From contig OZ316891.1 in NCBI GenBank assembly GCA_973895155.1, positions 8,805,875 to 8,869,874 on the forward strand: DNA of 64,000 bases, read 5' to 3'. The position numbers and the translations under genes are program-made. Shown piece after piece: positions 4,626-64,000 of this stretch. Below the pieces are notes generated by a model, which saw only the letters and a list, made by a program, of their open reading frames with translations, ran no database searches and had not been told where the DNA came from. The first letter of the stretch is position 1. Each line of letters starts with the position of its first letter. This DNA comes from Marsupella aquatica. Its lineage: Eukaryota > Plantae > Marchantiophyta.

Positions 4626-4990
4626 AGAGGATTTACAATACCGGAATGTTCTCCCAGTTTTTTAAATAGTTTTTTACAATCAATGAAAAACTCTATTTTT
4701 GTTTGTACTTGATGGTCACAAGATTATGAGTGTAATCCCAAACTCAATAAGATCCCCACCCCCTTTATATAAAAGATATTTTCTTCCCATAATTGTCATT
4801 CTGGTTCAAATGCACAGTTTCATAAATCTCATGGAATCTTAGAAATCCTATGGAAAAAAAACCCAGAGAAAATAGGTTCAAAGTTCAAAGGCCCACTAGA
4901 CAATGCCTATGTATTGCATAACATTGTCAATTGTAAGTGATATTGAGCAAATGTCATCAATAATTGAGATGGTTGGGCAGTTAAACATCA

Positions 4991-5373
4991 CTAGCCCTGA
5001 TTACTCGTTCCTTGAGCATAAATAACGGGGATGACAATAAAATGTCACCAAAATATATTCCATATTCACATTTTTTAAAGTTAATTAATGATATTATAAA
5101 AAACCATCATGTCATCATTTTAATAAACATACAATATTCTTTTCTAGGCACATCCCTCTTTCCATGCACATATGTTATGGTGGGGCCACAAAGCTCACTT
5201 AAAAAAATTAAAAAATCATGATAAAAATAGTTGCATCATTATCATTTGACATACATCATAATCCTGACTTCACCCATCCACATGATGAGACATGGAGTTA
5301 CAGTCTAGAGGCTTCACTCTAGAAGCCTAGGCCTCAACTCTAGCTTGTAGCTGACTCTTTTATAAGTAAGATG
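4991..5373 (-). mobile_element. Non-autonomous Helitron-like 3' end (minus strand)
   Basis: Minus strand ends ...gctcaaggaacgagtaatcagggCTAG|t. It is a diverged inverted homolog of 11578-11938 (shared acatatgttatggtggggcca and gtctagaggcttcactctaga). Confidence 0.55.
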
Positions 5374-5384
5374 GGGAGTCAGCA

Positions 5385-8300: not shown

Positions 8301-9130
8301 AAAAAACAATGGATACGAGAGGCAGTCTCACGGTGACCCACACAACTACCATGACTAGGGAGGGTAAGAGTCCACTGTGGAAAAAACATCAGTAAAGACA
8401 ATTAGGAGACCTCCATAGGATGCGGCAAGATAAGCTGCATGAGTTGCAACAAGGAGGACCGAACTAAAGGGCGCAACGCCAGAGGAATGTGGTTATAAAG
8501 GCAAGGTCTAATGTACCCTGGATGGTAGGCTGGAAGGGGGTCTAGAGTGCGAACCCAACTCCATGCCTGCTCGGGAGCCTCCAAGGAGGGAGGGGCAGAG
8601 CTAACCGGGTCAATAGGGGGCTGAGGCTGGGATTGTGCTTGCTGGCGACGATGGCACCGGCCCCGCCCGCGATGATGAGGAAGGGAGATGCCAACCCATC
8701 CACACTCAGGACAAGTAGGCAGGGGACGCTCATCCGGGGAGGGAGCAGGGAAAGACTGGACAGGAGGTGGGGGTGGAACAGATGTGGACGAGGAGGCCGG
8801 AGGAGGATGGTGAATGGGTGGAGGGGGAATGGGGTGGGGAGAGGAGCCAGGGCGACGATGGGGTGGGCAGTAGACGGGGGGGGGGGGACTGACAGAGCAT
8901 CGGGCATGGGCTCATCACGAAGATGAGAGAGATCCAGTGAAGAAGAGCAAACACGAAGACGGCCACGAGGGGGAGGGGAGGACGGGGGAGAAGTGTGGGG
9001 TGGGGCTGGGTGCTTGCCCCACGCCAACACTCTCAACGCAGACATGACAGGCCACAACCCGATAAAAGCAAAAACGCATCAAGAAGTGACACAAGGCCCA
9101 ACTGAGGCATGTGAAAAGAAAGGGGAGGCG
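5385..9130 (-). mobile_element. Decayed CRE-clade (R2-group, restriction-like endonuclease) non-LTR retrotransposon
   Basis: Consecutive minus-strand ORF fragments give RT motifs RPIVIGEVFLRLVSRTL, QFAVGVPGGCE, VDVSNTFNTVSR, GTRQGDPLGGPLF and SLSNDTHIIG. These are followed by an RLE domain (HDAVCDA...RVDL...ADVVV...KGAKY...FLPLALELFGRL). There are several stops and frameshifts. The 3' end is near (TCTA)n at ~5386-5398; the 5' end is uncertain. Confidence 0.8.
5493..5594 (-). repeat. ~52-bp tandem duplication in the CRE 3' UTR
   Basis: tgagcaa(a/t)agggaacc(a/c)ctaaa(c/a)accaagaaaga..actaaaa(g/c)taa occurs twice. Confidence 0.75.
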
Positions 9131-36800: not shown

Positions 36801-37042
36801 TGACGCATAAGTCTGATGTCTTGTCCATTTTTAAGAAGTGGAAGGCCCAGGTGGAGAATCAGACTGGAAACACGATCAAGTGTTTGGATACAAGGGTGAA
36901 GAGTCTGAGGTCAGACAACGGCGGGGAGTACACTTCAATGGAATTTGAAGAGTACTATTCAGAACAGGGGATAACTCGCCATCTCACCACAGTTTATACT
37001 CCACAGCAGAATGGTGTCGCTGAGAGGCTCAATCGGACACTG

Positions 37043-39154
37043 AGTCGCGAATACAACTTTCACCTACTCGTAATTGCTCCGGCGTTGCCTAACTCCAGCG
37101 TTGAGCCCCTCTTAGATTTGCTACCATCATGGCCATTAGGTATGCGACTAACAAAGAGGAGGCTAGTAAGAGCAAGGACAAGACTTGAGAAAAGCGCGCT
37201 CCAATTAACTTTATTGGGCCCATTGCCGATCACGGAAATATGAACTATTTTTCTGAAGAATCACCATAGGGGCCCAAGAAGCCCCACATGAGCCCGATCA
37301 TGGGGCCGCATATTTCTCGGCCAACGGACCCAGGGGCCAAAAGTTATGGCCGACTCAAGCCGCATGCTTGTAGTTTGGGCCCGTTGCCGATCATGGAAAA
37401 ATGAACTATTTTTCCAACGGATCACCATAGGGGCCCGAGAAGCCCCACATGAGCCCGATCATGGGGCCGCATATTTCTCGGCCAACGGACCCAGGGGCCA
37501 AAAGTTATGGCCGACTCAAGCCGCATGCTTGTAGTTTGGGCCCGTTGCCGATCATGGAAAAATGAACTATTTTTCCAAGGGATCACCATAGGGGCCCGAG
37601 AAGCCCCACATGAGCCCGATCATGGGGCCGCATATTTCTCGGCCAACGGACCCAGGGGCCAAAAGTTATGGCCGACTCAAGCCGCATGCTTGTAGTTTGG
37701 GCCCGTTGCCTATCATGGAAAAATGAACTATTTTTCCAACGGATCACCATAGGGGCCCAAGAAGCCCTACATGAGCCCGATCATGGGGCCGCATAATTCT
37801 TGGCCAACGGACCCAGGGGCCAAAAGTTATGGCCGACTCAAGCCGCATACTTGTAGTTTGGGCCCGTTGCCGATCATGGAAAAATGAACTATTTTTCCAA
37901 CGGATCACCATAGGGGCCTGAGAAGCCCCACATGAGCCCGATCATGGGGCCGCATATGTTTTGGCCAACGGACCTAGGGGCCAAAAGTTATGGCCGATTT
38001 AGACTCGATTAGAGTCGCCGCGCATCGATGGACCAAGAGGGGGTTGCCTGGACCAGGGGGGGTTTCCTGGACCAGAGCAGGGTTAGGGCCGTAACTTTTA
38101 GCCCCTTATGCCACAATTTGCGCTCGAGGCCAAGTTATAGAAGGTTTTCAATTATCTTCGTTTCGAGCTAAGTGGCGGGGCCCACGGACCCTTGGGTAGG
38201 GGGCCAAAGATAGGGGACCAAAGCTGGTCCGGGGGTGGCAGGTCCCCAGAAGCATATATGAGGGGAGTGGTCCTCTCAAGTTTGAGCTCGAGCTGATCGC
38301 GATCAACGAAGATACGTCGTTTCGAGTTTTGAAGCGGAAACAAACATAACTCGACGACCGGATCTCCGTTGGGGGAGTTCTTGGGCTCGTTGGAAAGCTA
38401 ATGAAGAAAGCTACCTCATGGTGCTCTCTGATTGTGCATTGGATGATTTTGGTTTTGAGGCTTGCAATGGGGGGAGTCCCTCTTGCCGATCCGAAGTCGA
38501 ACAGTGACCAAACCGCATTTAGTTCCCACGGGGACCTGATGTTGGAGAGGTAGAACCAAGTAGACTCTGGGGGCTGCCATTGAGATCTGGTCCCGATGCA
38601 TGGTGAGAGGTTGAGCGGAACCCGGTTTCGCAGAGAGGTGGCTAAGATCTAGAAACTGAATGGTCCCGGCGTGTTACTACTAGTTTGTGACAAACTGAGT
38701 TTGGGCCATGGGCATGTCCTGGAGGTAGGGCGGTCAGCCATTGACGGGTAGAAAGTAGGGAAGCTTGGGCGACATCCGGTAGATAGACTATTCTGGACAA
38801 ACAGTGATGTCGACCTTAGTTTCAGCTTATGGCAAGGCCATGCGGGCCTGGGAGGCTCTATCCGCTGACCTACTTACTAACGACTGTTGAGCTTGAGGCA
38901 AGACAATGGTCTTGGGAGTTCCGAGATCAAGACAAGTTCTTACCGGTTGGTTGGTTGCTTGTGCAGATAGCAAAGACCGTTGAGCGACGGTTGTGCTGAC
39001 GAGGGCAAGTGCGGCTTTGTATGGGAGGGGTCGCTAACGACAAGGAGTATAGTCGGGGAGAACTTGCCCCAACATTCCGTGTTAGTGCAAGGTTCGACTT
39101 GTTTCAAGGCTGAGAAACGAGTTTGGACGGGCACGTGGTGGGAGGGCCACCACT
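37043..39154. mobile_element. 2112-bp non-coding insertion inside the copia integrase (probable solo LTR with AGT...ACT termini)
   Basis: Integrase ...RLNRTL|LERSRSML is restored when the insert and one CACTG copy (37038-42, 39155-59) are removed. The termini are AGTCGCG...CACCACT and there is no long ORF. Confidence 0.8.
37215..37998 (+). repeat. 161-bp tandem repeat, ~5 highly similar copies
   Basis: Unit ggcccgttgccgatcatggaaaaatgaac...ggccaaaagttatggccgactcaagccgcatgcttgtagtttg. Near-identical ORFs at 37346 and 37507 give the period. Confidence 0.95.
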
Positions 39155-41656
39155 CACTGTTGGAGCGGTCACGGAGTATGTTGAGCCAATCGAGTTTACC
39201 ACAAGAATTTTGGGCAGAAGCTGTCAATACCGCAGCTTATTTGGTAAATCTTTCTCCTTCTAGTGCTATCAATTTCAAAACGCCGTTTGAGATGCGTTAT
39301 AAGCGGCAAGCAGACTATCATGGCTTGCTAGTTTTTGGAAGTGATGCATATGCTCTCACACCAAAGCAGAATAGGACCAAGTTGGATCCTACCTCCAAGA
39401 AATGTGTTTTTCTTGGGTACCAGAGTGGTGTGAAAGCCTATAGGCTATGGGATCCTATTGCCTGTAAGCTCGTTGTCAGTAGGGATGTTTCCTTCAATGA
39501 ATCCAGATTATTGAAGGAGGGGGAGAATACTCAGGTCTCCCGTACTGACAAAGAAAAATCTTCTATCCCGGATCTCGTTGAGGGGGAGATTGGTTATGAG
39601 GTGCATGACCGGAGAAAAGGAGTTGCTCCAATTATGGAGTTGGTTCCTGTGCCAGAGGAACCAGAGGAGTTTGTTGATGCTGGTGAGCAGCAAGTGGATG
39701 CTGTTGAGCTTCAAATTGTACCAGCACAAGCAGATCAACCGGAGTCATCGGCTAGAAGAACATCTGGTCGCATTGTACGCGCTCCACCAAGGTATGGACA
39801 GTGGGTTGATTCATCTCAACTGCAAGAGGATGATTTTACAACTGATGATGAGGGTGATGCGTTAATTTTGGAAGAAGGGGAACCTTCTTCATTTCATGAG
39901 GCAAGTGCTTCAAAGGAGAAGCAGAAGTGGACTGCAGCAATGCAAATAGAGATGCAGTCACTAAAGGACAACAAAACTTGGGAGCTTGTTAAGCTGCCTA
40001 AGGGTCAGCAAGTGGTGGACAGCAAGTGGATTTACAAGCTGAAGGATAATTCCATAGGAGGTGGATCGAAGGTCTACAAGGCTAGGTTGGTAGCAAAGGG
40101 ATTCACACAAGAGAAAGGTGTGGATTACAATGAGGTCTTCTCACCAATTGCTAAGTACTCTACAATACGACTATTGTGTGTACTTGTTGTAATGTTTGGT
40201 CTGCTGCTAGATCAGATGGATGTTGTCACAGCTTTCCTCTATGGCACATTGGAAGAGGTGATCTTCATGAGACAATCGCTAGGTTTTGGGAAGAGAGGAC
40301 AGGAGGAATTGGTTTGCAGATTGCTGAAATCCTTGTATGGGTTGAAGCAGTCACCAAGACAGTGGAACAAGCGGTTTGACGATTGGATTCGGTCACAAGG
40401 TTTTCACAGAAGTGTATTTGACCCTTGTGTGTATTTGAAACCGGTAAAGAATGTTGTCTTTGGGTTCATTGTTTTAGTACTTTATGTGGATGATATGCTA
40501 ATTGTAGCCAAGGATAGGTCTGAGATTGTTAAGCTCAAGGCACTGCTTAGTGCAGAGTTTAAGATGAAGGACTTAGGGCCAACTAAGAGGATTTTGGGTA
40601 TGGAGATCACTAGGGACTTGGAGGCTGGCAAGCTATGGTTGACGCAGAGCAGTTATGCGAGGAAGGTAATTGCAAGGTTCAACATGGGGAATAGCAAGCC
40701 AGTAAGTACCCCGTTGGCTCCACACTTCAAGTTATCATCAGCGTTCTGTCCTATGGATGACACAGAGAAGGGGTTGATGTCAAAGGTTCCGTATGACAAG
40801 GCAGTGGGGAGTCTCATGTATTTGATGACTTGCACTAGACCTGATCTTGCTATGGCTATGGGCAAGGTGAGCAGGTACATGTCGAATCCAGGGAAGGTAC
40901 ACTGGGAAGCAATGAAGTGGATTATCAGGTACTTGAAGGGTACCGTGGATTATGGTCTTTTATTTGATGCGAATGCAAAGAATGCTAAATCATTGATTGG
41001 CTATGTTGATTCTGACTATGGACAAGATTTGGACCGAAGGAGATCAACAACAGGATACGTGTTCACACTTGGCGGTGGATGCATAAGTTGGAGGTCTACT
41101 TTGCAGAAGTGTATTGCTCAGTCTACTACAGAAGCGGAGTATGTTGCAGCTGCGGAAGCAGCAAAGGAAGCGATTTGGTTGGATAGACTTATCATTGAAA
41201 TGGGATTGCCACAGGGGAATGTGAAGCTCCATTGTGATAGTCAAAGTGTGCTCCACCTTGCTGTGAACCAGGTGATGGACAGCAGAGTGAAGCACATTGA
41301 CGTTAGGTACCATTTTATCAGGCAGGCTGTGTCTGATAATTTGTTTGAGCTAGTCAAGATTGATGGTAAACTCAACCCGGCTGACGCATTTACCAAAGTG
41401 ATTCCTTTGGAGAGTTTCTCTAGACACCGTGACGTATTGCAGGTTTTGCAATTGCATCACAAGTAGAGTTTTCTTAACATTCATTGTAATTACTGATATA
41501 TGCTCTTCCTCATTCCTATGTATTAGGCTACGGCTTAGTTCTGGTTTGCTCTAGTTAGAGAGGGAAACCGGTTTGGTTTTTGTCCAGAACTTCCCGCTGA
41601 GGGATCATATACATTGGCAGTATTACTCTCCCCTAGACCAGAGTCAAGGGGAAGAT

Positions 41657-44637: not shown

Positions 44638-47164
44638 TCATTCTTTGAACCCTTCGATCATAGCCATACCGTTTGACATCTGAAGTACGTTACAACGTGG
44701 GAATCCAGCAGCTCTCAGAATCGCTTGGTACTCCTCCCTGCTTCTCTCCCGGGCACCCTTCAAATACGTCAGCATTATCAGGTCCATACACTCAACATAT
44801 TTACCCTGAATGTTGTTGTCATGCTTGTCCCTGAGAAACTCGGCAACGATTACCTTCCCGTTCTTTGCCGGCAGTGCTTTCCAGCAATTCTTCAGGATTT
44901 GGATGGCTTCTTCATCTCCGTAGTTGTGTAGAATCCACTGCATTCGAGTCCCAAGGCGATGAGTAATGAGAGCGATTGTCAAACAGTCAGTGTCAGTGTT
45001 CTTATTCACTTAAGGTTAAGATCGACGCTGGCAAAATGAGAGAATTTAATATTGTGGAGCCACGATCAATGTATGAAGAAACACTATTGCATTTATTTTG
45101 TTTTCTTGCACACGATCGTAAAATCACTGTATCGCCCCAAATTAGCTACGAACGAAACAACACGACACAGCCAAGTTTGAGACACCTTTCAATGAATACT
45201 CAGAAAACGTTAATTAAGGTAGATGCACTCTAGCTTTTTCTCTTAATTGTGATTCGAACCAATTCGGTCGAAAGTATTCAGAAGGTGGGAGTGACGTCCG
45301 AACCTTAAGAAACATTGCGTCTCCCGATGGCACGCTCTCGAAGAAACTGCCTCCGACATGCTGCACACCTGAGGCACAGAAATTTTGGAGATAAAATCAC
45401 CGAAAGGTAAATAGTGCCATTCAGAAATAACTCTCTACATTTACATTGGATGTGCCTGTCCATGGAAGTTTGACAAAGAAGATCATATCATGGATTGAAA
45501 CTAAGCTATCAAACTTACTGTAGATAATTTAAGAGGGCACAAAAGTTAAGAGCTTGAAGATGAAGATTGGAGACGGGGATCGGTGTGGCTAGGACCGCGC
45601 ACCATTTGCAGGAGCTGCGGCAATAACATATGGCAGGTCGAAATTGATCCCTTGAATATGTGGGCTGTGAGCAACAACCTGAGATACAAAGTATCCCCTA
45701 GATCCGCCCACGTCGACCAGAGTATTCACACCGTCGAGCACACCCGAATGCAGCAAACTGTCCAACGCTCCTTGCGAGACCAGATTGCTGTTGGCTGCCA
45801 TCGCCTTTTGAAACGTTACCCGAAACTCGGGGTTGTCAAACTCATACACAGGCACTCCGAACGCTTTTGTGAAGGCATTGGTAGTCTCATCTAGAACGGC
45901 CTCCGGCAAGCAAAGCTCAGTAGGAAAAGTAATTGAGTTATTGAGCAAATCTGCACAATGTCCGGCGGGATAAGTAGGTCCATATTAGAGTTTACCAAAA
46001 GTTTACCAAACACTAGTACAACAGTCAATTCCCATTTGTTTCCGTTAGCTCCGTACGTACGATTAGATGAAACGACTCTAGATCGAGCAACTGGGAATCG
46101 CTTAATTGCATATCCCTCCCGAGCAGTTAGCATACATTCTGCGGTACGAACATGATCGATCTGTAACACAAATCAAGGTATGTTGCGATGGACCTCAATT
46201 TTTCTATCAGAAACTTGTCGCGAAATAAATTGAGATTTGACACTCCAGTAGTTAAACTCAGACCAATTTGCTAGTAGTAGGAAAGGAATTTTGAACAGGT
46301 CACAACTAGCTTTAGATCATATGCACTTGAATGGACGGCCGGTGGCCATGGCCATGATGCATGACAGCCGGGAATTTGAGATCTCTCGACAATGTTGTGA
46401 CGTGTTCACTGGCTGGCAGTTGTACACAGTCATACTGACTAGAGGATGAACGTTACTATTAATTAGAGCTATGCATGAAGGCTGTGATGGGCTCCCCAAA
46501 AGTTCTTGGACCAATCGTTTGCGACCACAATTGAAAGTCCGTACGTCGCATACAAGAACTAACGCCATGGAGATTGCTACTACTGTCTAGCAAGGAATTT
46601 CCCACATGCACAGCTGACAAGTGATTTTAAAATAACATCTTACTGTAAAATTCTGCACCTGTTCGACGCGATGATCCTCGTGTGTCTTGGCTTGCTACCT
46701 ACCAATGCCCTTATGGGGCCGCATTTGTAGCCAGGATCAAGGATAACACAGAACTAATCGATGAGGTGTGAAGGCGATTACGTACCTGCAAAGGGCGTGA
46801 GGCTCATCGGATTTTCTCGGACGAACCACTGGGAGACTTCCGTAAGTCCATACACAGGTTGCTCATCGCCGTCTAGAGATTCACTAAAGACTCCTTCTCT
46901 CACTAAGGGCCTGAGGAGGCGTTGCAAATTCTGAACCACTGTAGGTCCTGCAGGAGTGGATTTGGTTGGCAGTTGCCGTAGAATTTCCTCAGCCGACATG
47001 GGCATTCTCCCTTCTGCACTAGCGAGGATATCTGGGACGCCTAACTTAAGTACAGCCTGGAGCGCCGTGAAAACGAGTCTTGTGAAGATCAGATTCTGTG
47101 CCACGAGGTGACTGGAATCGATTTGTAGAGTTCTTGCATCATTGATGCTGCTCATCGTGGCCAT
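44638..47164 (-). CDS. Class II (COMT-type) SAM-dependent O-methyltransferase; exons 47164-46786, 45950-45603, 45368-45304, 44937-44638 (363 aa)
   Basis: Dimerisation domain (ALQAVLKLGVPDIL...LQRLLRPL...YGLTEVS) followed by LVDVGGSRG, FDLPYVI, VQHVGGSFFESVPSGDAMFLK|WILHNY, LKNCWKALP and GARERSREEY. All GT-AG junctions preserve frame, including the 65-nt third exon. Confidence 0.92.
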
Positions 47165-50100
47165 GGTTGCAAGTTTGTGCACAGATCTGCGCCTGGACCT
47201 CGCCCAGACCACCGAGTAGGGTTGAAGAGGCCCTATACGGCAACGACCATAGCTCGGCAACCACAAGCCGGATGTGCGAGCTTGAGACGGGGTTATGAAC
47301 GGGCGGCCAAGTCCTAGAAGGTGCCGCTGAGGGAAGGAAATGCACGACATTTGTCCAGGAGGAAGATCGATGCCAGTACTGTCGGACTCCCACTATCAAA
47401 GTTGCAAGCCCCACCAGATTTATCAAGATCTATCCTGCCTCACATGCATAAAAAGGGAAAGTAAAACTCGGAATCTCCGCTTAGCTCTTCGTGCTCTCGA
47501 TCGATCATCCAAATCTATAATTCAAGTTGGTGGATGAATCTGGTCTTATACAACAAGCCTACAACAGAAGTGAACGAAGAGAAACTGAGAATTGAATGCT
47601 TTCTTTCGATATCGATCAATTATTGGAATAGAGAATATTATACTGAAGCAGAACTTATGCGTGCGACACAGATTGGTGTCATCATGTAATTGACTGTAGT
47701 CCTACTGTTACCGACGTTGCTGTCGAGAAAAGTGGAGAAAAAAAGTGGAGAAAAACGTGTGGTCTGACTAGAAGAAAAGTGAGGTTTATAAGTGTACAGA
47801 TGGATTTATGACAGAGTTAGTACAACTTCCAGTTGAATCTTGAAATAGCCTCAGGGTGTGAGGAGTCCAATGTGTGTGCCTGAAAACAAATACATCACAT
47901 AGTTGTCCAGTTAAATATGGAAATATGAGGACTCAGGATATCCCATACACTTACTACCATGCACATATTGAGAAAGTGCATGAAGTGGATGATTGCTCGC
48001 CAGCAGTGTTTCCAAGACAGCCTGCACTAAGACATGGTTGTCTATATCAGAGTGCCAAAGATAAAAAATGTCAACTCGAGAGATAGGACCGCAAAGGTAA
48101 AAGATCCTATCAGGGGAGAGGAAATGGGAAAGACACAAAAGGGATAAAGAGGCCCCACCACTTCAAGAGGCAAAAAGAAACGCAAAAAACCAACGACAGA
48201 GAAGACAAACAGCTGCCATACTCAGAGAAAACACTGAAAAACCTGTCAAAGCTCTCAAGATATATATCACTGCCAAAAAGATAGGAATCCCAAAGTGGGA
48301 GACATGGTCCGAAAAGGAGAAAGAACCCAATAAAGGTTGGGGAGAAGGAAAAGACCCCAAAAAGATCAAAGAGACCCAACAAGTCAAAGATAACCCCAAA
48401 AACCAAAGACTAGATGGATCTAGAAGCCCGACAAGCTACAGCGTGCCTTATGTGGGCTTGTCTCAGCTTCGGGGTTGTCTGGGCTTGTCCAGGCTTCTGA
48501 AAAGGAATGTTTTAAAATTTTGATACCCAATGCCAATGAATCTGTTGGGACAGGGCAAAGCACTTGTAACCAACTCAACTTCCTATTTTGTAGTGCAACT
48601 TAATAAGTTGAAATGTTCCTTATTTGGATTTAATCTTTTGAATTTTCTATGAATTTGGTAGTTTCCTAGACCCCTCTACTGTAGTGTTTAAACACTCAAC
48701 TTATTCCCTTGTCAAAATACTCCTGTGACCTGCATATTTTTATTCAGTTTCTCCCTCTCCATATCCTAGTATTAATAGGCTTCTTAGTATGGAGTCCACC
48801 ACCCAATCATGTGAGATCCCCTCATCTATACAGTGACATAGCATAGATTTGACCTCGAAAAAATGCCATGCAAGTATTAAAACCCTAAACTATGAGAAAA
48901 TATAGGCTATGCAGTACTCAAAACTCTTTACGTTGAGATTGAAACAATCTAAGTATACATAGTAACTCATTAAAATTTCATATTTAATTGTACAGCTCAC
49001 ACTCTGGGGGTCTCATTTCCCCCAAAAAAATGACACATCATATACAAAGAATAGGCTGAGTTGTTTTATTGATACTCAAGGAAGACTCTATAATCCTTGT
49101 TTAATACATTACGGTCTTTTAAATCTATTTTTGAAACTTATAAGAAAAGATAGGTCGAAAACATACTACACACATTGTGATTTTGTACAGCAGCAACTGA
49201 GAAGTGCAATCGGCTAGAAAAGCATTGAGCCTGTTGAGGTTGAATCAACATCCAACAGCTGGATCTATCTGTGGAGAGAGAGAAACATTCCAGGAGGCCA
49301 GTATCATTTGCTCCTTTCTCTCCCTTCCCTTCATGCTTTTAAGCACCAACTGAGGTGAATTCTGATAGAGTATTTAGATTTCACAGTTTCAACAAATGGG
49401 GCAAAAGAATCAGGAAACAATGAATTAGGCAATGAGTCTGATGGAAGTCCATGGCAACCCCATACAAGGCATTGTATGATGCAAGCACAAAGATTTCTGC
49501 TAGAAGGAGAATATTGCTAGTAACTCAAAGGAGTGGTTATTAATGCCACTTTTATTTTGGCTGAATTTTGTATTCCTAGGACTCCAGATGGCTAGCAAGT
49601 TTGCTAGCGAAAGAGGAGTCCCCAAATTGGGTTAAGTTTGCTAGTGAGGTGGTGTATATTTAGGGTTTTTAAAAAATATTTTAGGGGTTTTGCCCTTATT
49701 GGCAAAAAGTATGGTACTGCAGGGAATCATTTTCAGGAAATCCATGATAATGAAAGTATGAAATTCTTTTTTTCCCTATGTGTGAGATGCACTTGAGTAA
49801 CCATTCAAATGTGGATATTGGCCACACTTCACTTTACATGAACTTGGGGGCACAATCAGGGGCAAAACATTTACCAATCCTAATTATCTGCCGGTTGCTA
49901 GATGTGTGTCCCTTTTCTTTGCTGATGAGTTAGAGATCCTCTTGAGGTGGTCTAAAAGAATGGACCAAGCCTTCTATTCAGGGCCCTTGCGTTTGGTATC
50001 TCTAGACCTAACTGTTTGGCTTAGGCATTTTAATTTTAGTGTGTACAAGTGGCCCTCCCCTTTGCTTTGGATGGAGATACACTTAAGGGCCTCACCTTCT

Positions 50101-52597: not shown

Positions 52598-54195
52598 ATG
52601 GATGGCCTGGGAGCTGATGAGCAGTACCGAGTTGACGCATTGGCAATTCCTAAGAGCGTAGCCGCTCGAATTCCACAAGCGCCCGATAGTTATGCGAATT
52701 TACAGACTTCATTACAGCAGCTAGGTCTGGGGCATCTACTTGCCGTTCCTTGGAACGTAGAACTCGACTCATACTTGCAGGATTTTGTGAAGAGGTCACT
52801 GCTTGCTCCTGAATTTTGACAGACCATTCGAGCTTGACCGAGTCTGTGGACTGTGGAGCAAATTGCTCGTGCCTTCCGCTGCCCTTCAGAAGGAGAAGGA
52901 TTGTATTCAAAGAAGAAAGATTTGTCTACTCCCTACTTCTCTGGGATTTGCAATCTCACAAATGGCTGGAATCTAACACAGTGTACTTATCCAGATTTGA
53001 GAGTGCTGCTGGAATTTCTAGTGTCAATTTTACACCCGAAAAAGCCAACCATTTGCCCAGTGGCTTTGGTGAACCCAATTGTAGCTCCACATAGTGGAGC
53101 CATCGAAGTGAATTGGGCCTTGTTAATTTTCAATGTGATGAAGGATCAGGTGAGGAGCATGAAGGCAGGTAGACCTACCTATCTGCAGGTATATCTGTCT
53201 CAGCTCTATCAGGCTTATGATTGTTTACATCCAGAGGAGAGAACAAAAAGAGGATTACTCCTGATCGAACTAGGCATTGAAGAAGAAATTGGTGTGGAAG
53301 AACCAGTGGATGCTATTCCCTTGGATTCTAATGATCAGAATGTGGATGTTGATATGGATTTGGAAGATGCCTCAGTGGGTGAACTTGAAGTTTCATCTGC
53401 TCATGATATGGAGTTGGTTCGACATCCTCTGTTTAACTTGGTGTATTCAAGAGAAGTCAACGAGGAAAATCAACCTGAAGCTGAAAAAGCTGAGGACGAC
53501 TCTGAGCAACACGAAGCTGTTGCTGACCCGACCATTGCTGTCATCCTGAGGGTTGATCCAACTACTTCTTCAAAGGCAGAGTTCAACCAGCAACTTATTG
53601 ATAAGTTAATTACTCTTTTCGGTTGTGATGATGTGGAACTCTATGATGTTGTCTGTAATTTAAGATCAGAGGTAGTCAGCTTATCATCCCCATTTCCAGA
53701 TCAATTAACTCTTGTCAGGACCACCTCCCCTAGCCTATTGTGGGATCAGCCTTAGAAGAATTCGTTGCTCTCAGTCCTGTTGCACCACCAAACCTGCCTG
53801 TAGAGCCAAGTGAACCTGTTCCTGTGACAGAGGATGTAAATTATGCTGCCATTGTAAACGACTTACTGGACATGCTACAGTGTGAGCCACAGGAGATAAT
53901 GTCAATTGTTAGCAACTTCACTCAGAAATCCCCAGTTGCAGAAATTCCTCATAATCTAGATCCTTACTCATACAGTCCTGATTCCAACTATGAACCCACT
54001 AATGGACCTATCTTCACTCGGGGTCGCTATGAAGATCCTTATGTTAGACGGGATCTCTCTGATGACTCTGACCCGCCTTCGGATAATGATACTTATAGAT
54101 ATTATGACAATTCCCTCGGGGGTCTCACTATATGGAGGACCCCCCCATCACCTGCGATGTTTTTCATGCCTAGACCCCCATACTTATTAAGTTGA
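52598..54195 (+). pseudogene. Disrupted TE-associated hypothetical protein (putative plant transposon protein-like domain plus acidic tail)
   Basis: Intronless frame with two TGA stops near 52817-52837 and a frameshift near 53745. GWNLTQCTYPDLRVLLEFLVSILHPKKPT...VNWALLIF...YLSQLY resembles accessory ORFs of plant TEs (recognised from memory). Confidence 0.55.
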
Positions 54196-54576
54196 AATTT
54201 TTTTTCCTCCCTCTTTCTTTCTTCTAAGAGTCTAAAATCCAAATTGTATTGCCCCTATAATTTGTGAAGTAAAGTGTCACATATCAATATAAAATGCCTA
54301 GAAAGAAAAGATAAGTCTATGTCAGTACCTTGTGAAGTCGTATGTCAGACATGGCACGCCCTGCAACAGTTCTTGCACTTTTGTCGACCTTAAACTTTGA
54401 TCATTTCAATGCATCATTTATATTGTGTACCTAAAAGGTCATCCCAATATAAACCTTACGTGCATAAGTGGGATGGCCTTTAAGGTCACAACATAAATAA
54501 TCCATTCCACCCATTGATCACCAATCCCATGCTCCATCCATACTCCATTGAAAACTTATGTTGAGAGATGTAACAT

Positions 54577-54635
54577 GTGACGGAGGGGAATTGAACCCCT
54601 AATTGAGAAAGGATCTCAAGTTGCCAATCCGTCAC
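54577..54635 (-). ncRNA. 59-nt tRNA-like structure lacking a D-arm (mascRNA-like)
   Basis: GTGACGG ATTGGCAAC TTGAG-ATCCTTT-CTCAA TT AGGGG-TTCAATT-CCCCT CCGTCAC. It has a perfect 7-bp acceptor stem, a 5-bp stem with 7-nt loop, and a 5-bp T-stem with a canonical TTCRANY loop. Confidence 0.6.
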
Positions 54636-54668
54636 CCCCTATCCTATCCCACTACACCCACTAATATT

Positions 54669-54748
54669 AACAAAATAAAACATATATACAAACTCTCAAA
54701 AACTAAACAACAAAATAAAACATATATACAGACTCTCAAAAACTAAAC
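54669..54748 (-). repeat. 40-bp U-rich direct repeat (2 copies) between the transposase stop and the tRNA-like element
   Basis: aacaaaataaaacatatataca(a/g)actctcaaaaactaaac occurs twice on the plus strand. Confidence 0.9.
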
Positions 54749-54761
54749 AGTAACATGATAT

Positions 54762-57700
54762 TCATACCATTGTTTGAAGATATTGATCCAAAGCACGTCT
54801 ATCTATTGGATCCAACACATAGATACGATCCATAACCCCTTCTTTCATGGTTAAACTAACACTAGCAATGACCATTTCAATATCCATCCATTTCAAATCA
54901 GTGGTATCATATCTGAATTCACTTTTGCTCTTACCAATAGGACTATACCAATTTAACAACAGTTCACAAATGTTACCTGATTGCCCTGCAAGTGGAGTTG
55001 GCCTATCCATCAAATCAATTGGTGACCGACAATTGCCCCACCTACTGCCATACTTCTGTCTCATTTGGACAATCCGACCCAACCAAAAATATTTCTTACC
55101 TGCTGAGATTGCCTCCACCACAACCTTATTCTTTCCTCCCTTTCTTTTTCCAGATCTAGTACTTGGAGCAAGACTATCATCAGACTCAAATGCAATTGCA
55201 CAATCAGTGCCAACATCAACAAAACATGAGTTAGGATTGACTTCTTGCACTTTTCTCTTGCCAGTACTATAGTATAGCACTTGTTTCACCCTTGTCAGCC
55301 TATCTTTTGACAAATGCGGATTTCCTACCAACTGGCTTACCAGAGTGGATTTGTAAATCACCTTGCCTTCATAAGTAACAGTAGGCACTACCTTGGTACG
55401 ATTCTGTACATTAGTTACAGCATGGACAACTGATCCAAACACATGCCGAACTTCATGACCTAATGTCTCAAGCTCATCTGAGGGGTCTACATCAAACTGT
55501 ATATCATCTCTGTGTACATCATCTGAATGCATCTCAGGAACAACAATGGGATCTGGTTCTGTTAACCATGCATCTATTCTATTCAGATCATCCTCAGGAT
55601 CTTCCAATTCATGAAAATCTCCAGTTGGGCGAGGACCTATGTCTGGTGGTTGGTGCTCTACTTGCTCCTCAGAATCATTGCAAACAATTGCTTCCTTCAG
55701 AACCACCTCTAGTGGCCAGGTCTCACTTTCCACAACCCAAGGACATGTCCACCATCTCTTTCTAGCTGCTGGTAAGGAACTTCGTGGAGACATCTGCAAT
55801 TGATGCATAAGATCCTTAGCAGCAACAAAACCTTCTTTAAGGGCTGCAACCACTAATTCATTAGTCTCAATGAGAGAATAGTCAAGTAGATTTGGTGCTT
55901 CCTCCCCTTCCCCTATAGGATGAATCTTCCCCCATACATGATCTTGTTTCTTATGTGAACGACCTATCTTCAAGCCTTCTGGTCCATATTCTAGGGCAGC
56001 AAGCCGGTTCAGTCCAACAGCACTATCCAACAGAGAGCCAAAATCATAATTCCGCTCATGGCCACTCATGCCTCCTACCTTGCTGAAGAAAATCTCACAA
56101 CAATCTGAACCTAGCAAGTGGAAGGGAACACCTAGATGTGGGAACTTATCTCGAAAGGCACAAATTAACAGCACAATGAAATGACATGACATGTTAACAT
56201 CATGAAAAGCCTGAATAGACATCATGTCTTTCTCAGTGTGTGCTGCAAAGTTCCCACCCACTGAATGGTCACCAAACCTCAACCACAATCTCCACAAACG
56301 TAGAAAGAATGAAACCTTGGATGCTAACACAATACGGGACCTCAAATCATGAACTGGAGAAAAGAAAATATCTAAGTAATCTGCACAAATCTCCAAGTAC
56401 AACTGAGTTCCTAAACTTCGTTCATGTTGTACATCTCTCCTCTCATACATATCTTTCAGACATTGCTGCACTCTTCTTGCTGCTATTCGTTGTGGACCTG
56501 CCCAATTCTGCCGGTCAGTCCTATTCACATCATCCCAAGCCATGCCATGTTCATGAATTGGATAATGATTGTAGACATTAGCTACATAAGATAAAGATGC
56601 ATGTTGATCTCCTAGCACCAGTAAAGAAGACACTCTGTCTAAGGGGTTTATCATCTTTTTCCCATTATGAGGTTGGTCTTGGTCACCAAAGCCATACAAA
56701 TCTCCATTTGGTAGAATTGACACAGAGTATGTCCACCCTTCCCACCCAACTCCGTACCTTGGGTATGATCCATTCTGCCCTCTGTAATCTTCCAGCATCA
56801 GCTTTCGGCGACGTGCATCACCATCACTAGCATGTCCAAGCAAAGGGCCTACCATAGCTCTACAATATTCATCCCAAAAAGCCTTTAACTGGACCCAATG
56901 CTCTCGTACCCAAGAAGCTGTGAACTTATTACAAGTTGGAAGTGCACACACAACCAATTTAGGTAAGGACTCATGCAGAGGATTCACAATCACAACTCGG
57001 GCATACATGCACTTGGGGCATTGTTCAAATGTACTTACAATTTTATCATACCCCTCATCACCTTCACCTACTAGAATTTCCAAACCATAGGAGCATACAT
57101 GCTGCTCTGAAGGTCCACAGAAACCAATGAGAGTATCATACTTTGCCTCCCACCTGAAACACAGACATGCAATTTTTCAATATCACAGCAATTCCACCCA
57201 AGTGCTACTTGTAAAGTCATTAAAAAAACAATTGGAAAAATGTCCAGTTCCAATTACCTAGGGCGTTCTTTGATCCTTGTTTCATCCTCAGCAAAGATAA
57301 CAGGCACATCCCCCTCAATGCCCAATGAGTGCTTTGCAGCAGACAACACTCTAGCAATCTCCTGAAAGGTTTCCTTCCGTAACCCGGTTCGAAAAGGTGT
57401 GAGTTTTGCTCTATCACGTTTTAGGGTCACAAGGCTAGGGGCTGTCAAGTTTCGTGCAAAACAATGAGCAACTTGACGGCCCCCAAATTGGAACATAGCC
57501 TGAGCAATAGCTCGAGTCCTATTACTGTAACGATTACCTTTTGGCTTCCTGCCTAAATTGCGAGCTACATCCTTCAAGAAATCCCACAAACCCTCCTTAC
57601 CACCAAATGCACCATTCCTGTGTCCATTCAAAATACTCCTAAGAAACAATCTCAAATCCTTCCTGTTTGCTGCAACTCCTAACAACTCCTCTAGTTTTCG

Positions 57701-59338
57701 TTTCCTGGTGCTCAAGGCACATACTTTCTGAGCCTGCAAAGCTAACAACCAACGCTCTTTTCGTCGCACAGAGTTCAGGTTGTGCACTTGATCTCTTAAC
57801 TCTGTGTTGGTCAAATAATCCAAACGTATACCACCAGCAGTGGTTCGGCTCCCTCTGTGGACTACTGCTTCCGCTTCCCTGTGCACCCGTCCACGAAAAT
57901 CATCTTCTAGTGTTATAGAATCACATTCACTACAAGTTAGATTTTCAAATCCTCCTCCATTATGTGATAACCTCAAGCAATCCTTGTGTCTAAAACAGCC
58001 TGCTATACTCACAACACTCTCTCTACTTGGATGGAAAACATCCAAGCAACAACTTGGCTCACAATGCCATGTAATTCCCCCAGACTGATCATCTAAAATG
58101 CCAGAAATATCATAAGACATACCCTTCCATAACAGTCGAGGCACACCTCTCTCTACCCATAATCCCCAGCAAAGCAAACTCAGACCAAGATCAACAGATT
58201 CACACACACCTGAACCTGAACCTGAACTGCTGCCTGTCCGGGACCCATCATCTTTAAAGAACTTCAAAATCCCGCTCTGACCAGGATGTAGGTCCCTAGA
58301 ATCAGTCCTCTTTGGCCTGCCCCTCTTCCCAGACCTCAAGGCAAGCATTTTTGTGTCATGCCTAGTCTCCAATGCATCCAAGTGATCTCGACTCACTAAG
58401 TGTGTCCTCAAATTGGGCTCCAAGGTAAGCTTCTTGGGGCACAAGTCAGTGTGAAGCATTCCACAGACAGTACAGCGAACCTTAAACAGGAAAGACCTGT
58501 TTACATACTCAGGAGTACTGGGATCAGGAACAATAGAGAATAGTTTGCCATCATCCCCAAGCTCAGCATTCAATCGCTGAACTATCTCAACACCTACTTT
58601 GATGGCGTCTGCATGATCATATTCTGGCTTCTCAGAGATGTCTGCTACCTGAACCAAAGTAGAAGGAATGCCCCTTCTCCGACAATAGTTATCCTTGTGC
58701 TTATTGAAGACCAAGTGTTTGGTCTTAAAATTACTAAAGCAATTGGAGATGGATTTAGGGTTCTGAGAGTTGTCTGCATTGCCATAAGTTTCCCTACATT
58801 CAAGACACTCCAGATGCCCTCGAACATCTGTCCCCTCATCCCAGGTACGAATTCTCCAATTGTGATCACCATAACCCTTCTTATGTACCCATTTCTCTAA
58901 CCTCATCCACTCATCTTTCCATAGCTTTGATGGGACATCTCCCATCAATTGTGACTCAAAAGAAGCCCTTACAGGGGAGGGTGCTAGTGCCGTTGGCCCC
59001 AGTTGTGGTGTCCCAGTATTTGGACCCAATGATGCAGGAGTGCAAGGATGATAGGGTACTGGTGGGATCCTCCCACCATCTCCAAGTTCTTGTTGTACAA
59101 CAATAACTCTTCCATCCAGCTCAGACAGATCAATTAATTTCTCATGTACAAGTTTCACTCGACCAGGAAGTCTCTCATCCCAAAAATCAAAGTCAAAGTC
59201 TAGAGTAGAGGCAATACGAGCCCTAAAATCATGTAGGGTGTGTCCTTCTTTGAATGACAAAACACAAATTGGTAAATCAGCCTTGTCATCCCCAACTTTG
59301 CGTATTAATTTAACAGAGTTGGGTTTAGGGGCTGCCAT
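54762..59338 (-). CDS. P-element/THAP9-like DDE transposase, 2 exons (59338-57258, 57153-54762; 1490 aa), intact
   Basis: A 104-nt GT..AG intron joins the 694- and 773-aa ORFs in frame. Motifs appear in P-transposase order: RYSNRT...APSLVTLKR (HTH-like), FAEDETRIK..R|WEAKYDTLIGFCG (D1), HASDGD (D2), DQPHNGKKMIN (DxxHxxK), DRQN, LLGSDCCEIFFSKV (E). There are N-terminal Zn-finger-like motifs and a C-terminal FWLGRI...NWY domain. Confidence 0.8.
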
Positions 59339-59833
59339 TGCAATACAAATCTAGAACATGCATAGCACCATTGCTTTTGGAGTTGATAACAGAAAGACCT
59401 GCACAAATACATTTGAAATACACACAAGGGAAACACATTAGGATCTTCAAGAGATGCAATGACAACATACACATTCTCATGTAATGTACATAATGTCAGC
59501 ATACATTTAACAATAGAAGTGCTAATAGGCCAAAACACTTTATAATGCAATCCATCATACATGCAAATGTATTCAGTGAAAATCATGATATACCGCTAAA
59601 GTTGGATAAAATATCTTTGGACAAAATATCCTTTTCGCCTGCTTTTCTAACAATTCCCGAAGTTTAGTGCTTCTGCTCATCAAAATACAGCACTATTAGT
59701 GACCTTAATTATGACAAAATGTCAACACTAATAAAATTGGGTACTACCACCCATGATGCACCTTAAGTATGTGCCTTGCTCATACCCCACTAAGACGTTG
59801 AAACCTAAGTAATAGGTTTGTTCATTATTCAGA

Positions 59834-60508
59834 TCACTGGAGCCATGAAATGTGGTCCCTGATTGGAGTCTTGAGGTGTGGATCAATAGGATGACGGGGG
59901 CAATAAAACATCTGTCGCTGTTGTCCATGTGCTTCATGGTCCCAGATGTCCCTATCATGAGCGAACCCTTTGCTTTTGATCATCTGGAGACAATCTGTAT
60001 GCCAGGCATTTGGACATCGTAGACATTGTACCATGTTCTTGACCATCTGACCCTCAAGACTCTGATAACATGTCACACATGTATGCAGTGGGCAGGACTT
60101 TGCATCAGCTACCAAACACCCAAAGCAATAAAATCGTACACAAAAACGATCAGAGCATTTTCGCACAATTGTAGGTGACGGTCCCACAGTGCGGCACCCA
60201 TAACACATGGCCTGGTCCTGGTTACAATTTGGGCAAAACCATGGCTTCCCTCCATGATGGAGGGGAAGGACTACACAGGGGCAAGAGTCATTAGGGGCTT
60301 CATCTCCAACCACATAATGAAATTGCCTGTGACATGGCCCATCACAAATTACCAACTTCCCACCATGCTCACAAATTGCACAAACATGAGGGCTAGTTTG
60401 TAGAATCTCTTGCTCAGAGAACAACGGAATACGCAATACCTCTTCCAAAGAGGCTCCTCTGTCAGAGGACTGTGTTGCTTTCTTTATGTTTGAAGTCCTT
60501 GTCGGCAT
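59834..60508 (-). CDS. Stand-alone EDM2/NSD-type composite PHD-finger protein (224 aa)
   Basis: CAICEHGGKLVICDGPCHRQFH...WFCPNC...CYGC...CPLHTCVTC...QCLRCPNAWHTDCL...FYCPRHPIDPHLKTPIRDHI mirrors the EDM2 PHD region as I recall it (CAICDNGG..., YFCPNC, CPLHKC, CRRCPKSYH, YCQEHEIDEELLTPVRDHV). Intronless. Confidence 0.8.
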   Translation of the reverse strand: MPTRTSNIKKATQSSDRGASLEEVLRIPLFSEQEILQTSPHVCAICEHGGKLVICDGPCHRQFHYVVGDEAPNDSCPCVVLPLHHGGKPWFCPNCNQDQAMCYGCRTVGPSPTIVRKCSDRFCVRFYCFGCLVADAKSCPLHTCVTCYQSLEGQMVKNMVQCLRCPNAWHTDCLQMIKSKGFAHDRDIWDHEAHGQQRQMFYCPRHPIDPHLKTPIRDHISWLQ

Positions 60509-60824
60509 GGTTCAACTGCAATCATCACAAAGCACATCACATATGAGGGGGACATGATGATAGTGAGCAATCCATAGACAAAGATAAGGTTAATCATAGC
60601 ACCTGCTCCAATGATCTGCAAACCTCCCTCCCAGATGAAGTCAACTACACAGTGCAACCTGAACACCCACCAACCAAGACATACATAAATACAATGCCAG
60701 CTTGCAAAACTTTGCCACATAATGGGAATGAAAAATATTCTCATATATCATGGATGGTACAATTGCAGCCTTGCAAACAAAGGCCTAGTCATATATGAAC
60801 AACGCATCCATGTACTATCAGGGA

Positions 60825-61223
60825 CTACAATGTCAAGCATCCATGGGTTGTAACCTTAGCTTGATCTGGAATACTATCTGGGGCTACAATATCAAGCTCA
60901 GTTGAATGTGGAATACTATCAGGGACTACAATGTCAAGCGTGTCCGGGATGACAATCTTGCGTAAAAGACACTCATTTTGAGGCCAAATGGTTGGCCTTA
61001 TACAAGAGCACTTCCAACGACGTGTGACAACTTTGCCATGCTTTCCCATGTATGTCCTAGTAACAAGCCTTCCACGCATTTTCAAGCAGAAGCAATGGAA
61101 CCATTCAAAATTCCCATCACCAACCCTGCACTTGACACAAGGTTCACACCAACAGCATTCATCTGGATGCTGCAGAAGGAGCTTCTCATAATTCGCTTCT
61201 AATGTAATGCCCAATATAGCCAT
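60825..61223 (-). CDS. Small Cys-rich protein with an ING-like PHD signature and LDIVxPDS repeats
   Basis: CCWCEPCVKC...EWFHCFCL...RWKCSC, then LDIVVPDS and LDIVAPDS. A third copy is out of frame at ~60815-60838, so the ORF may be frameshifted. Confidence 0.5.
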   Translation of the reverse strand: MAILGITLEANYEKLLLQHPDECCWCEPCVKCRVGDGNFEWFHCFCLKMRGRLVTRTYMGKHGKVVTRRWKCSCIRPTIWPQNECLLRKIVIPDTLDIVVPDSIPHSTELDIVAPDSIPDQAKVTTHGCLTL

Positions 61224-62067
61224 GGCACTATTTTTTTATACTCGGTGAATGGCCAGACGATTAGACGTGCAATGACAGGCAACTTACAATTCACTAGGTA
61301 CACTATGTGTTCTAGCAAACTGCTTCACCGCAAGTGTTGGTGCTCACTGCTGCAAGCGCTGATGACAACCTCTACAATTCCTTTTGCAACCTGTGAACAA
61401 AATTGAAACCACCATTCAATTTCTAAGTTTCAAAAACTTCCCATTACATGAAGACAACCAATTGGCCATGCATGTTACTACAGCAATAAAATAATAACCC
61501 AATCGCTCAACAGACCTGAATAGCTAACCTGAATAGGATCAAGTTCAGAATCCAGAATGGTAATGCCCTTGCCCAGAAGCTTGAGAAACAAAAGAGAATT
61601 TAAAATCAAGCACGAGCGTCATCCACGTCTTGACCAGGCCCGCCACCCAGTATGGCTGGAGGCTGTGGTCCCCCCTGGCTGAGTAAACACTTAAAGAAGT
61701 CTTCTCTTCTAGATGACTTAAAGAAAATTGCAGGAACCAGCCAACGGGACACCAAGGCATGTAATAGAGAACCAGATTTGTGCGGGTGTGTGGGGGACGA
61801 CAGAAGTCAAGTTACAAGATTTTTTTCCTGGGGTCCAGCCCACGGATGGAGATCATGTAAGGTGGTCAATCATGGCAAGTGCAATCATTGGAGACCTGTA
61901 CTCGCGGTTACTCTAACGATGCATCCAAAAAACATGTGCGTCAAGTCGTCGATGCGGACACAGAAGGAGAGATGAGTATGGACAACGTCGAGACAAATGA
62001 CGACAATACTGAGCTAGTATTCGGCTGGGAAGTTGGAGCTGGATCTCAGCAGTGGCTCCAAACCTTA

Positions 62068-62177
62068 TCTGCGAGGGCATGGCGAGCTCTGGAGGACAAA
62101 ATACTCAAAGAGCTTATCGCCATTCACGGAGCTCAGAACAGGAATTTTATAGCTGAAAAGCTAAACGGGCAGATCAG
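62068..62177 (+). pseudogene. R2R3-MYB first-repeat exon fragment
   Basis: ARAWRALEDKILKELIAIHGAQNRNFIAEKLNG(RSG) resembles RGHWRPAEDxKLKELVAxYGPQNWNLIAEKLxGRSG. It has a +1 G frameshift, ends at a CAG|GT donor-like site, and no downstream MYB exon is seen. Confidence 0.7.
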
Positions 62178-62439
62178 GTGCTTCTCGTCTATGACCGCTA
62201 CCAGATCGACTCTAGGTGTGCCATGCGTGATAGATTTGGGCGTCAAATAGTAGCAAGCAAGCAAGTACGATCGTCAAAGTAGGCAGCGCCTACCTCCCGA
62301 TTGAGCAACGCAGCAATGCAGCTCCAATCCTGGCACTCCGGTTTGAGATATTGCAACACTCCCTGCAGTAGCCACCTCCCGTTTCAGCAAGCTAGCAGCT
62401 CCCGTTTTAGAAAGCAGCAATGCAACACTCTCGACACCC

Positions 62440-63310
62440 ACCTCCCGGAGCGCAACACTCTTGCTCGATCCTTCACTCCCGGGTTCACTTCAAGCAGCAG
62501 CGCAGCTGCAAAGTCTCGCTCTCCCCTTCACTCCCGGGTTCACTTCAAGCAGCAGCGCAGCTGCAAAGTCTCGCTCTCCCATTCACTCTAATCAGCACAC
62601 GCAACTGAGAAGTCTCGCTCTCCCCTTCACTCTAATCAGCGCACGCAACTGAGAAGTCTCGCTCTCCCCTTCACTCTAAGCAGCAGCGCAGCTGAGATGT
62701 CTCGCTCTCCCCTTCACTCTAAACAGCAGCGCAGCCAGGAACTCTTGGTCGATCCTTCACTTCAAGCTGCAACGGCAGCAGCACAGCCGAGAGTGCAACA
62801 CTCTCGCTCTCCCCTTCACTCCAAGTAGCAGCGCTTCACTCGATCCTTCGCTCGATCCTTCGCCAAGAACTCTCGCTCTCCCCTTCACTCTCGCTCTCCC
62901 CTTCACTCCTTCGCTCGATCCTTCGCCGAGAACTCTTGCTTGATCTTTCACTCCAGCCGCAGCAGCAACGCAGCTCGATCCTTCTCCGAGAAATCTTGCT
63001 TGATCCTTCACTCCAGCCGCAGCAGCAACGCAGCTCGATCCTTCACTCCAGCCGCAGCTCGATCCTTCACTCCAGCCGCAGCTCGATCCTTCACTCCAGC
63101 CGCAGCTCGATCCTTCACTCCAGCCGCAGCAGCAACGCAGCTCGATCCTTCACTCCAGCCGCAGCAGCAGTGCAGTCGAGAGCACAACAGGAGTCGATCC
63201 TTCACTCCAGCAACAGTGTAGTCGAGAGCACACTCTCGCTCGATCCGACCTTCACTCCAAGTGCAGTCGAGAGCACACTCTCGCTCGATCCGACCTTCAC
63301 TCCAAGCAGG
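62440..63310 (+). repeat. Complex nested tandem array (24-, ~41-43- and 55-bp units)
   Basis: Recurrent gctcgatccttcactccagccgca and ctcgctctccccttcactc motifs. Confidence 0.9.
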
Positions 63311-64000
63311 AGCACAACTGGTTTAGACCCCGTTTAGACCATTTGCTGCAAGGTACAAACAAAAGAGACTCTGTTGAGGCAAAGAGCGGGTGGGGCCAAA
63401 GGGATAGTGGAGGGAAACGACACGGGAGGAGACTGACAAGGGCCAATTGAGGTAAACGAGACACGTTAAACAGAAAAATTTCAAACTTAATCCCGGTCAA
63501 ACCCTAAACGTGAGTCCCCATAAAACCAGATCATTCTCAAATTCTTGCCATGTTAACATATTAGAAAAATTAGGAAAATATATTGGGAATGTTATGTGTG
63601 CCATGTGTACCAATGACATAGTGACACGTGTACTTTACATAGTCCGACACAAAGACCCCCTAACTTCTTTGTATGCCTTCCATCTACAAAGTCAAAAATA
63701 TTAATATCCCTATTATTCTTACAAGTTGTCCAACATATAAAGTTGGCCCTATTGTTCTTACACAAATCTTCTTAAGTCTTCCGAGAAACCCAATTAACGG
63801 ACCCTATACTTCGTCGCACATGATATGAGATTTTCGCGGAGTGAGACCCCCGAGACAATTCCCTTGAGTCATCACCAAGGCAGGGGTTTGAAGATGTTGA
63901 TACAGCTTTGAGGTCAAACCCAAACCTAGTAGCAGTGATTACGTCCTCTACTCAGACTCCCAGGAATGCTACTATCAAGAAGAAGTATCCCAAGCTTCCC

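Follow-up and report, generated by a model that had tools for sequence, protein, structure and literature searches.

A 9.7-kb DNA transposon encoding a P-like transposase, probably recently mobile, in the liverwort Marsupella aquatica

A 64,000-nt stretch of contig OZ316891.1 from the Marsupella aquatica (Marchantiophyta) assembly GCA_973895155.1 (forward-strand positions 8,805,875 to 8,869,874; hereafter the window, numbered from its first nucleotide) carries a large transposable element with a 1490-aa transposase gene. Taken together, the data point with good confidence to a 9740-bp DNA transposon with 15-bp ends, an 8-bp target-site duplication, and a transposase of predicted P fold, which has likely moved recently by cut-and-paste in this seed-free land plant. 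An earlier note, made from the letters of the DNA alone, had described only the interval 54762..59338; both the ends of the element and a second gene, encoding PHD fingers, lie outside it.

The element, its ends, and its copies

The element occupies 54115..63854 on the minus strand, as delimited by inverted ends, a target duplication, and sequencing contigs that join across it. Its terminal inverted repeat (TIR), CTCGGGGGTCTCACT, lies at 54115..54129 (plus strand; 3′ end of the element) and is identical at 15 of 15 positions to the other end at 63840..63854 (minus strand; 5′ end). These are the only two exact copies of that sequence in the window; they are inverted with respect to each other, and ACAATTCC is found directly outside both, at 54107..54114 and 63855..63862 (plus strand). 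Since about 1.9 inverted pairs of 15 bp are expected by chance in 64 kb, the pair alone is not significant; what supports the element call is the duplication together with the joined target and the comparison with relatives.

The window by itself permits a duplication of either 8 or 10 bp, owing to an 11-nt direct repeat. We adopted 8 bp and discarded the 10-bp alternative because the relatives L003 and L021/L023, which have the same CTCGGGG ends, show 8-bp duplications. L003 is a complete, 6096-bp intronless element with 26-bp CTCGGGG ends; in L021/L023 (L021:2694-2716 and L023:37-60), a family member sits in the transposase gene of another member, near codon 848. The latter insertion and that of the window element, i.e., the two with an identifiable target, are both inside other repeats, too few (n = 2) to speak of a preference. 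The CYCGGGG end motif was present in 9 of 80 related loci, and one end is bordered by three different flanks in L011-L013. L001, an 8.8-kb intronless relative (positions 308-9065), has 15-bp ends with no target duplication found, and carries 3.3 kb of extra sequence after its transposase gene, including a 174-aa open reading frame (ORF) at 7003-7524.

Contigs from three of the four DNA sequencing runs (X1, X2, and X3) join position 54105 to position 63854, skipping 9748 nt, and the flanking ORF interrupted by the element is open across the joined site (173 codons without a stop). This broken ORF (52838-54114 plus 63863-64000) is part of a multicopy host repeat and has no Pfam match; one might guess that the repeat is similar to a long terminal repeat (LTR) retrotransposon. 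Contigs internal to the element differ from the window by 0 to 7 letters per 0.2 to 1.1 kb. Their depth (454-526 in X1, 2046 in X2, and 1636-2162 in X3) is about 25 to 60 times that of near-identical contigs at 47.4-49.8 kb (18, 36, and 36, respectively), which suggests tens of young, near-identical copies of the element, with the reservations that contig depth differs from true copy number and that X1 may be the source sample. A further point to set against recent mobility is that the target-joining contigs deviate from the window by 9 to 10 letters per 110; because of these mismatches, we regard them as further host-repeat copies and not as an empty allele.

A location within a multicopy repeat, with high depth on the 50-54 kb side as well, is what would be seen if the element were an immobile fossil or a domesticated gene whose multicopy signal stems from amplification within the host repeat. 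Such an origin is highly improbable given the perfect ends and duplication, the intact ORF, the near-identical contigs, and the existence of host-repeat copies free of the element. The element is instead intact and probably recently mobile, in agreement with the earlier proposal that it is potentially active.

The transposase gene and its intron

The transposase gene runs on the minus strand and consists of exon 1 (57258..59338; 2081 nt, aa 1-694), a 104-nt GT-AG intron in phase 2 (57154..57257), and exon 2 (54762..57153; 2392 nt, aa 694-1490). Exon 1 encodes a ubiquitin-like domain, zinc-finger-like units, a helix-turn-helix (HTH) region, and the first putative catalytic residue, D685; exon 2 encodes D804, E1047, the D853/H856 motif, an insertion domain, an acidic linker, and a C-terminal domain. 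Joined, the two exons give 4473 nt and 1490 aa, the sole stop being the terminal one; the gene model originally put forward, with no stop or frameshift over that length, is exact. The intron (GTAATT...TTTCAG; 66% AT versus 56% in the exons) lies 9 codons past D685 (AEDET). We infer that it is spliced because relatives read these words continuously in a single frame and because one of them, L015, is interrupted at this codon by a GT-AG intron of 119 nt.

Retention of the intron would end the protein at residue 694 through an immediate TAA, just as previously read from the sequence. The truncation is thus correct, but the product would not be restricted to an N-terminal DNA-binding part as had been claimed: it keeps D685, the HTH region, and the ubiquitin-like domain. 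The earlier note had gone on to propose a splicing-controlled switch, in which tissue- or stage-regulated retention of the intron would yield a 694-aa DNA-binding repressor, as with IVS3 of the Drosophila P element. The putative DNA-binding parts are indeed all in this product, which misses two of the three catalytic residues, and the position of the intron seems old. In a FastTree phylogeny (midpoint root), the window protein, its Riccia and Calypogeia relatives, and L015 form one clade (support, 0.989) with proteins whose gene calls start at the intron codon. Six bacterial-style calls, P0001, P0002, P0010, P0011, P0014, and P0019 (47-78% identity), begin at or just past this codon, and P0020, just outside the clade, also starts there.

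The intron is therefore probably old within the clade of the window element; old introns, however, need no special role, and the early stop follows from the donor consensus. A phase 2 intron with the common donor GTAA produces TAA at once, the GTGA donor of L015 likewise produces TGA, and 95% of 20,000 shuffles of the 104-nt intron hold an in-frame stop. Moreover, the intron is missing from most relatives: the codon at its position is read through in one frame in 68 of the 80 related loci (a few of them degenerate and some possibly RNA derived), an intron is present in 1, and the others do not cover the site. L001 and L003, both complete-looking intronless elements, and L020/P0041, whose sequence is L015-like, are continuous here, while other subfamilies (L006-L008 and L010-L013) are interrupted at different positions. 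The premature stop also lies 2494 nt ahead of the normal one, and an early stop that far upstream is a typical trigger of nonsense-mediated decay in plants. Any unspliced transcript would be more likely to be lost by this route than to serve as a dedicated repressor. We consider the switch unsupported and decidedly unlikely; the 104-nt intron would simply be spliced as an ordinary intron.

Assignment to the P superfamily

The fold of the catalytic core was predicted for P0013, a relative that lacks introns, shares 48% identity with exon 2, and has the whole core in one piece (predicted local distance difference test [pLDDT] score, 86.5). In a Foldseek search with this model, the Drosophila P transposase structures 6pe2 and 6p5a came first (E values of 5e-10 and 9e-10), followed by RAG1 at 5e-3. 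VIA-align against 48,161 chains gave the P transposase a Z score of 24.1 (root mean square deviation, 3.4 Å over 417 residues), the next score being 8.3. The superposition comprised 417 of 442 residues of 6p5a, from residue 128, and covered the HTH, RNase H, and helical GTP-binding-type insertion domains, at a structural identity of 13%. Assignment to hAT, MULE, or Transib was rejected, with Z scores of 7.2 to 8.3 for Hermes, ISCth4, and RAG1/Transib versus 24.1 for P.

Sequence profiles lead to the same place. A profile of 47 diverse family members ranked 6p5a first (E value, 0.0027), covering its residues 122-247 and aligning D685 with D230; the same profile pairs D853-Q-P-H856 (a D-x2-H motif) with Drosophila D339-T-P-H342. 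The predicted catalytic triad thus comprises D685 (57286-57284, exon 1), D804 (56825-56823, exon 2), and E1047 (56096-56094, exon 2), all on the minus strand. Among 128 non-redundant cores, drawn from 175 rows that span 330 residues or more, D804 is conserved in 125, D853 in 124, H856 in 127, and E1047 in 125. Some relatives also reach P families in Pfam (P0106 matches PF12017 at an E value of 6e-5, and PF21787 is reached at 9e-8). Searches of PDB sequences with exon 2 as a single sequence or with the close-relative profile A1 missed P.

In the modeled fold, the triad, the D-x2-H motif, the HTH, the inverted ends, and the 8-bp duplication, the element resembles P, and its product is best described as a predicted P-superfamily transposase, a variant of a known superfamily. 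This bears out what had been suggested from the sequence, the structural comparison having shown for the P0013 model an RNase H fold with P as best match and no other DDE superfamily close. Three points speak against it. The fold was obtained from the relative P0013, not from the spliced protein of the window; Pfam returns no P family for either exon, with weak matches only among family members; and the pocket for guanosine triphosphate (GTP) appears different. Eight residues contact GTP in the Drosophila enzyme, K385, K400, V401, S409, F443, D444, N447, and D528 (PMC7776569), and identical counterparts are found only for D444 (D955) and D528 (D1044). In a 3.9-bit alignment, in which D528 was placed via the DxxE motif, K385 corresponds to G, K400 to N, V401 to W, F443 to L, and N447 to F; at S409 the window protein has A, and 20 of its 35 close relatives have S. 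Among those 35, K400 is replaced by N in all and V401 by W in 34, and most have some hydrophobic residue for N447. Weak as this alignment is, it suggests that the GTP pocket has been partly changed.

The consistent replacement of putative GTP contacts, the low structural identity, and the lack of a THAP match (see below) could also be taken to mean that the family stands beside P as a sister superfamily, with a shared fold, distinct ends and DNA-binding domains of its own, and no dependence on GTP. The ends themselves could be cited for this, CYCGGGG being unlike the CAT ends of Drosophila P. Zebrafish Pdre2 has CAT ends too (PMC10983969). Yet the HTH, RNase H, and insertion domains superpose entirely, the duplication is of 8 bp, and the ends finish in a 3′ G. 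The family profiles, in addition, converge on P at the E values given above for 6p5a, PF12017, and PF21787, and convergence of sequence profiles is the Repbase rule for a superfamily (PMC4455052). We accordingly judge a separate superfamily unlikely and keep the family within P.

Compared with the Drosophila melanogaster P transposase (6P5A/6PE2), the predicted protein shares the HTH, split RNase H, and helical insertion domain layout, the D/D/E triad with D-x2-H, and the D444 and D528 equivalents. Both elements have ends that start with C and finish with G and duplicate 8 bp of target, and both genes contain introns. It differs in length (1490 versus 751 aa), in having a ubiquitin-like domain and C2H2-type fingers, with no match to the THAP domain of Drosophila, in a conserved C-terminal extension, and in several putative GTP contacts; the intron here is just after the first Asp, that of Drosophila near the end, and the element is 9.7 kb long with 15-bp CTCGGGG ends and a PHD gene. 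With respect to animal P elements in general, the end motif is CYCGGGG..CACT, as opposed to a CA start. THAP9 and zebrafish Pdre2 share with the element a core of P type, inverted ends that are short (13 bp in their case), and an 8-bp duplication; they have a THAP domain, ends of the CAT type, and GTP contacts that are conserved, none of which is evident here (PMC10983969).

Domains outside the catalytic core

The exon 1 model (mean pLDDT, 63) has a confident ubiquitin-like beta-grasp domain at aa ~5-85, matched by many ubiquitin-like folds with Z scores of up to 7.8. A DIX identity for this domain was rejected, as Foldseek E values were 0.02 or worse and VIA-align gave only generic ubiquitin-like matches (Z, 6.3-7.8). 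Two confident CxxC...HxxxxxH units, C2H2-type zinc-finger-like, follow at aa 178-214 and 289-319, then the basic GRP motif KRGRPKR at aa 338, a Cys/His-rich region at aa 385-480 modeled at low confidence, and a long helix at aa 511-544 leading into the HTH region. These finger-like and basic motifs, as well as FWLGRI at aa 1383, had been listed before and were all located in the protein. For THAP, there was no Pfam match in 38 family members and none among the listed fold matches, the model of aa 385-480 being of low confidence.

The C-terminal domain (aa ~1280-1490, ~210 aa) is conserved, and full-length relatives keep it together with all the N-terminal parts. The BAH/Tudor label formerly given to this region is unsupported by sequence tools, which found no usable Atlas match and no match under an E value of 0.98 in profile searches of the PDB, and Pfam gave only DUF3104, at 0.01, in 3 of 18 sequences. 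Other add-ons are borne by the distant relatives P0086, P0089, P0090, and P0061, namely, Tudor (E value, 1e-9), C1, SAP, and YqaJ-like nuclease domains. Domain capture looks common in this transposase clade.

A PHD-finger gene within the element

Upstream of the transposase gene, on the same strand and within the element ends, lies an intact 224-aa ORF (59834..60508, minus strand) with an NSD-type triple PHD-finger cassette (Pfam PHDvar_NSD, E value of 6e-8; NSD2 residues 657-795, 4e-6). Ten stand-alone homologs of 213-239 aa align with it at 43-80% identity and keep nearly all zinc ligands. The cassette resembles PHD1-3 of NSD2, and the protein is likely a chromatin reader. The cassette may also be like that of Arabidopsis EDM2, with the difference that here, unlike in NSD2 and EDM2, it forms a stand-alone ORF inside a transposon. 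EDM2, which has 2 1/2 PHD repeats of an atypical kind, binds chromatin bearing H3K9me2 and acts as a suppressor of premature polyadenylation (PMC7529245). The PHD ORF is present in 0 of the 80 related loci, many of which are short or of the intronless branch; it may be a passenger of the window lineage.

Our working model is as follows. The C2H2-type fingers, the basic motif, and the HTH region would substitute for the animal THAP domain in binding the element ends, and D685, D804, and E1047 would excise the element and join it to the target with an 8-bp stagger. The triple-PHD protein, a probable reader of histone tails, would aid expression of the element in, or its insertion into, repeat-rich chromatin; this is the weakest step. 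A more ambitious version, which we think rather doubtful, is that of a large, still-active, undescribed P branch in seed-free land plants that has dropped THAP, rebuilt or lost its GTP site, and, in the window lineage, captured an EDM2-like triple-PHD reader, used either to secure complete transposase transcripts where chromatin is silenced or to direct insertions to other repeats; it would then be a chromatin-reading P element with two genes. The apparent alteration of the GTP pocket and the cargo gene for PHD fingers are better leads than the splicing switch. With an intact multicopy element and intronless relatives such as L003, it becomes testable whether use of GTP as a cofactor and a 17-nt cut hold throughout the P superfamily or are confined to animals; the PHD cargo is a candidate new means for a transposon to cope with silencing, and an active native element could serve as a gene-tagging tool in bryophytes.

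Further features inside the element include a 132-aa Cys-rich ORF (60825..61223, minus strand), which may not be a gene, with no Pfam match and no counterpart in the fetched related loci or proteins, and a 92-aa ORF (61972..62250, plus strand) with a weak Myb-like match (PF00249, E value of 0.009, under the curated cutoff) that we treat as a lead only. GC-rich degenerate tandem repeats (62283..63304, no strand assigned; repeat families D1-D5 and D7; GC, 0.54) lie near the 5′ end. Single-base insertion variants among copies at 60512, just upstream of the PHD start, and at 61455 fit untranslated sequence.

Distribution of the family

Homology searches yielded 64 and 7 relatives. Close relatives with a species name come from Riccia sorocarpa and R. 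fluitans (identity of up to about 60% in the core), Calypogeia fissa, and Adiantum nelumboides, and two distant non-plant matches were also found. A metagenome scan with the single protein gave no match; a scan with the alignment succeeded, and the family profile collected 977 cluster representatives at E values of 1e-30 or better. The family is therefore present in liverworts and a fern, is annotated as "hypothetical" in Riccia, and falls under the Pfam curated cutoffs. Its range among seed-free plants is probably broad, and it is probably an unrecognized part of their genomes that Pfam overlooks.

The earlier note had remarked that P elements are not a standard superfamily of land plants. 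The excerpted text of two reviews agrees in part: Gao 2023 names seven TIR superfamilies in plants, with P absent (PMC10741241), and Mhiri 2022 gives six (PMC9033089). The remark understates the occurrence of P in plants, however, as Elliott & Gregory 2015 list P in all major groups, their columns, as we interpret them, placing it in flax, cotton, neem, coffee, and Chlamydomonas, not in Selaginella, with no data for Physcomitrella (PMC4438587). The Chlamydomonas element P-2_cRei moves (PMC9977147); it provides a parallel within the green lineage, though in an algal host and likened here by its description only. P elements are rare in fungi (PMC5751038). No P family was seen for moss, Blasia, or hornwort in the excerpted text, supplements aside, of PMC7466625, PMC13182070, and bioRxiv 2022.10.21.513199. 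Our literature search brought up no account of this clade or of any P element from liverworts, mosses, or ferns, although prior entries may exist in Repbase or in Yuan & Wessler 2011.

Neighboring sequences

The remainder of the window contains a Ty1/copia element at 35394-41463 (plus strand), with gag, integrase, and reverse transcriptase matches; an exon fragment of a plant O-methyltransferase, corresponding to the dimerization domain, at 46781-47392 (minus strand); and a 601-aa stop-free frame without a Pfam match at 20234-22036 (minus strand). The plant O-methyltransferase exon and the copia element, together with the liverwort origin of the nearest named transposases, fit a seed-free land plant and most likely a liverwort as host. 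Between 49800 and 52400 lies a repeat region of very high depth that contains short direct repeats and is distinct from the P-like element.

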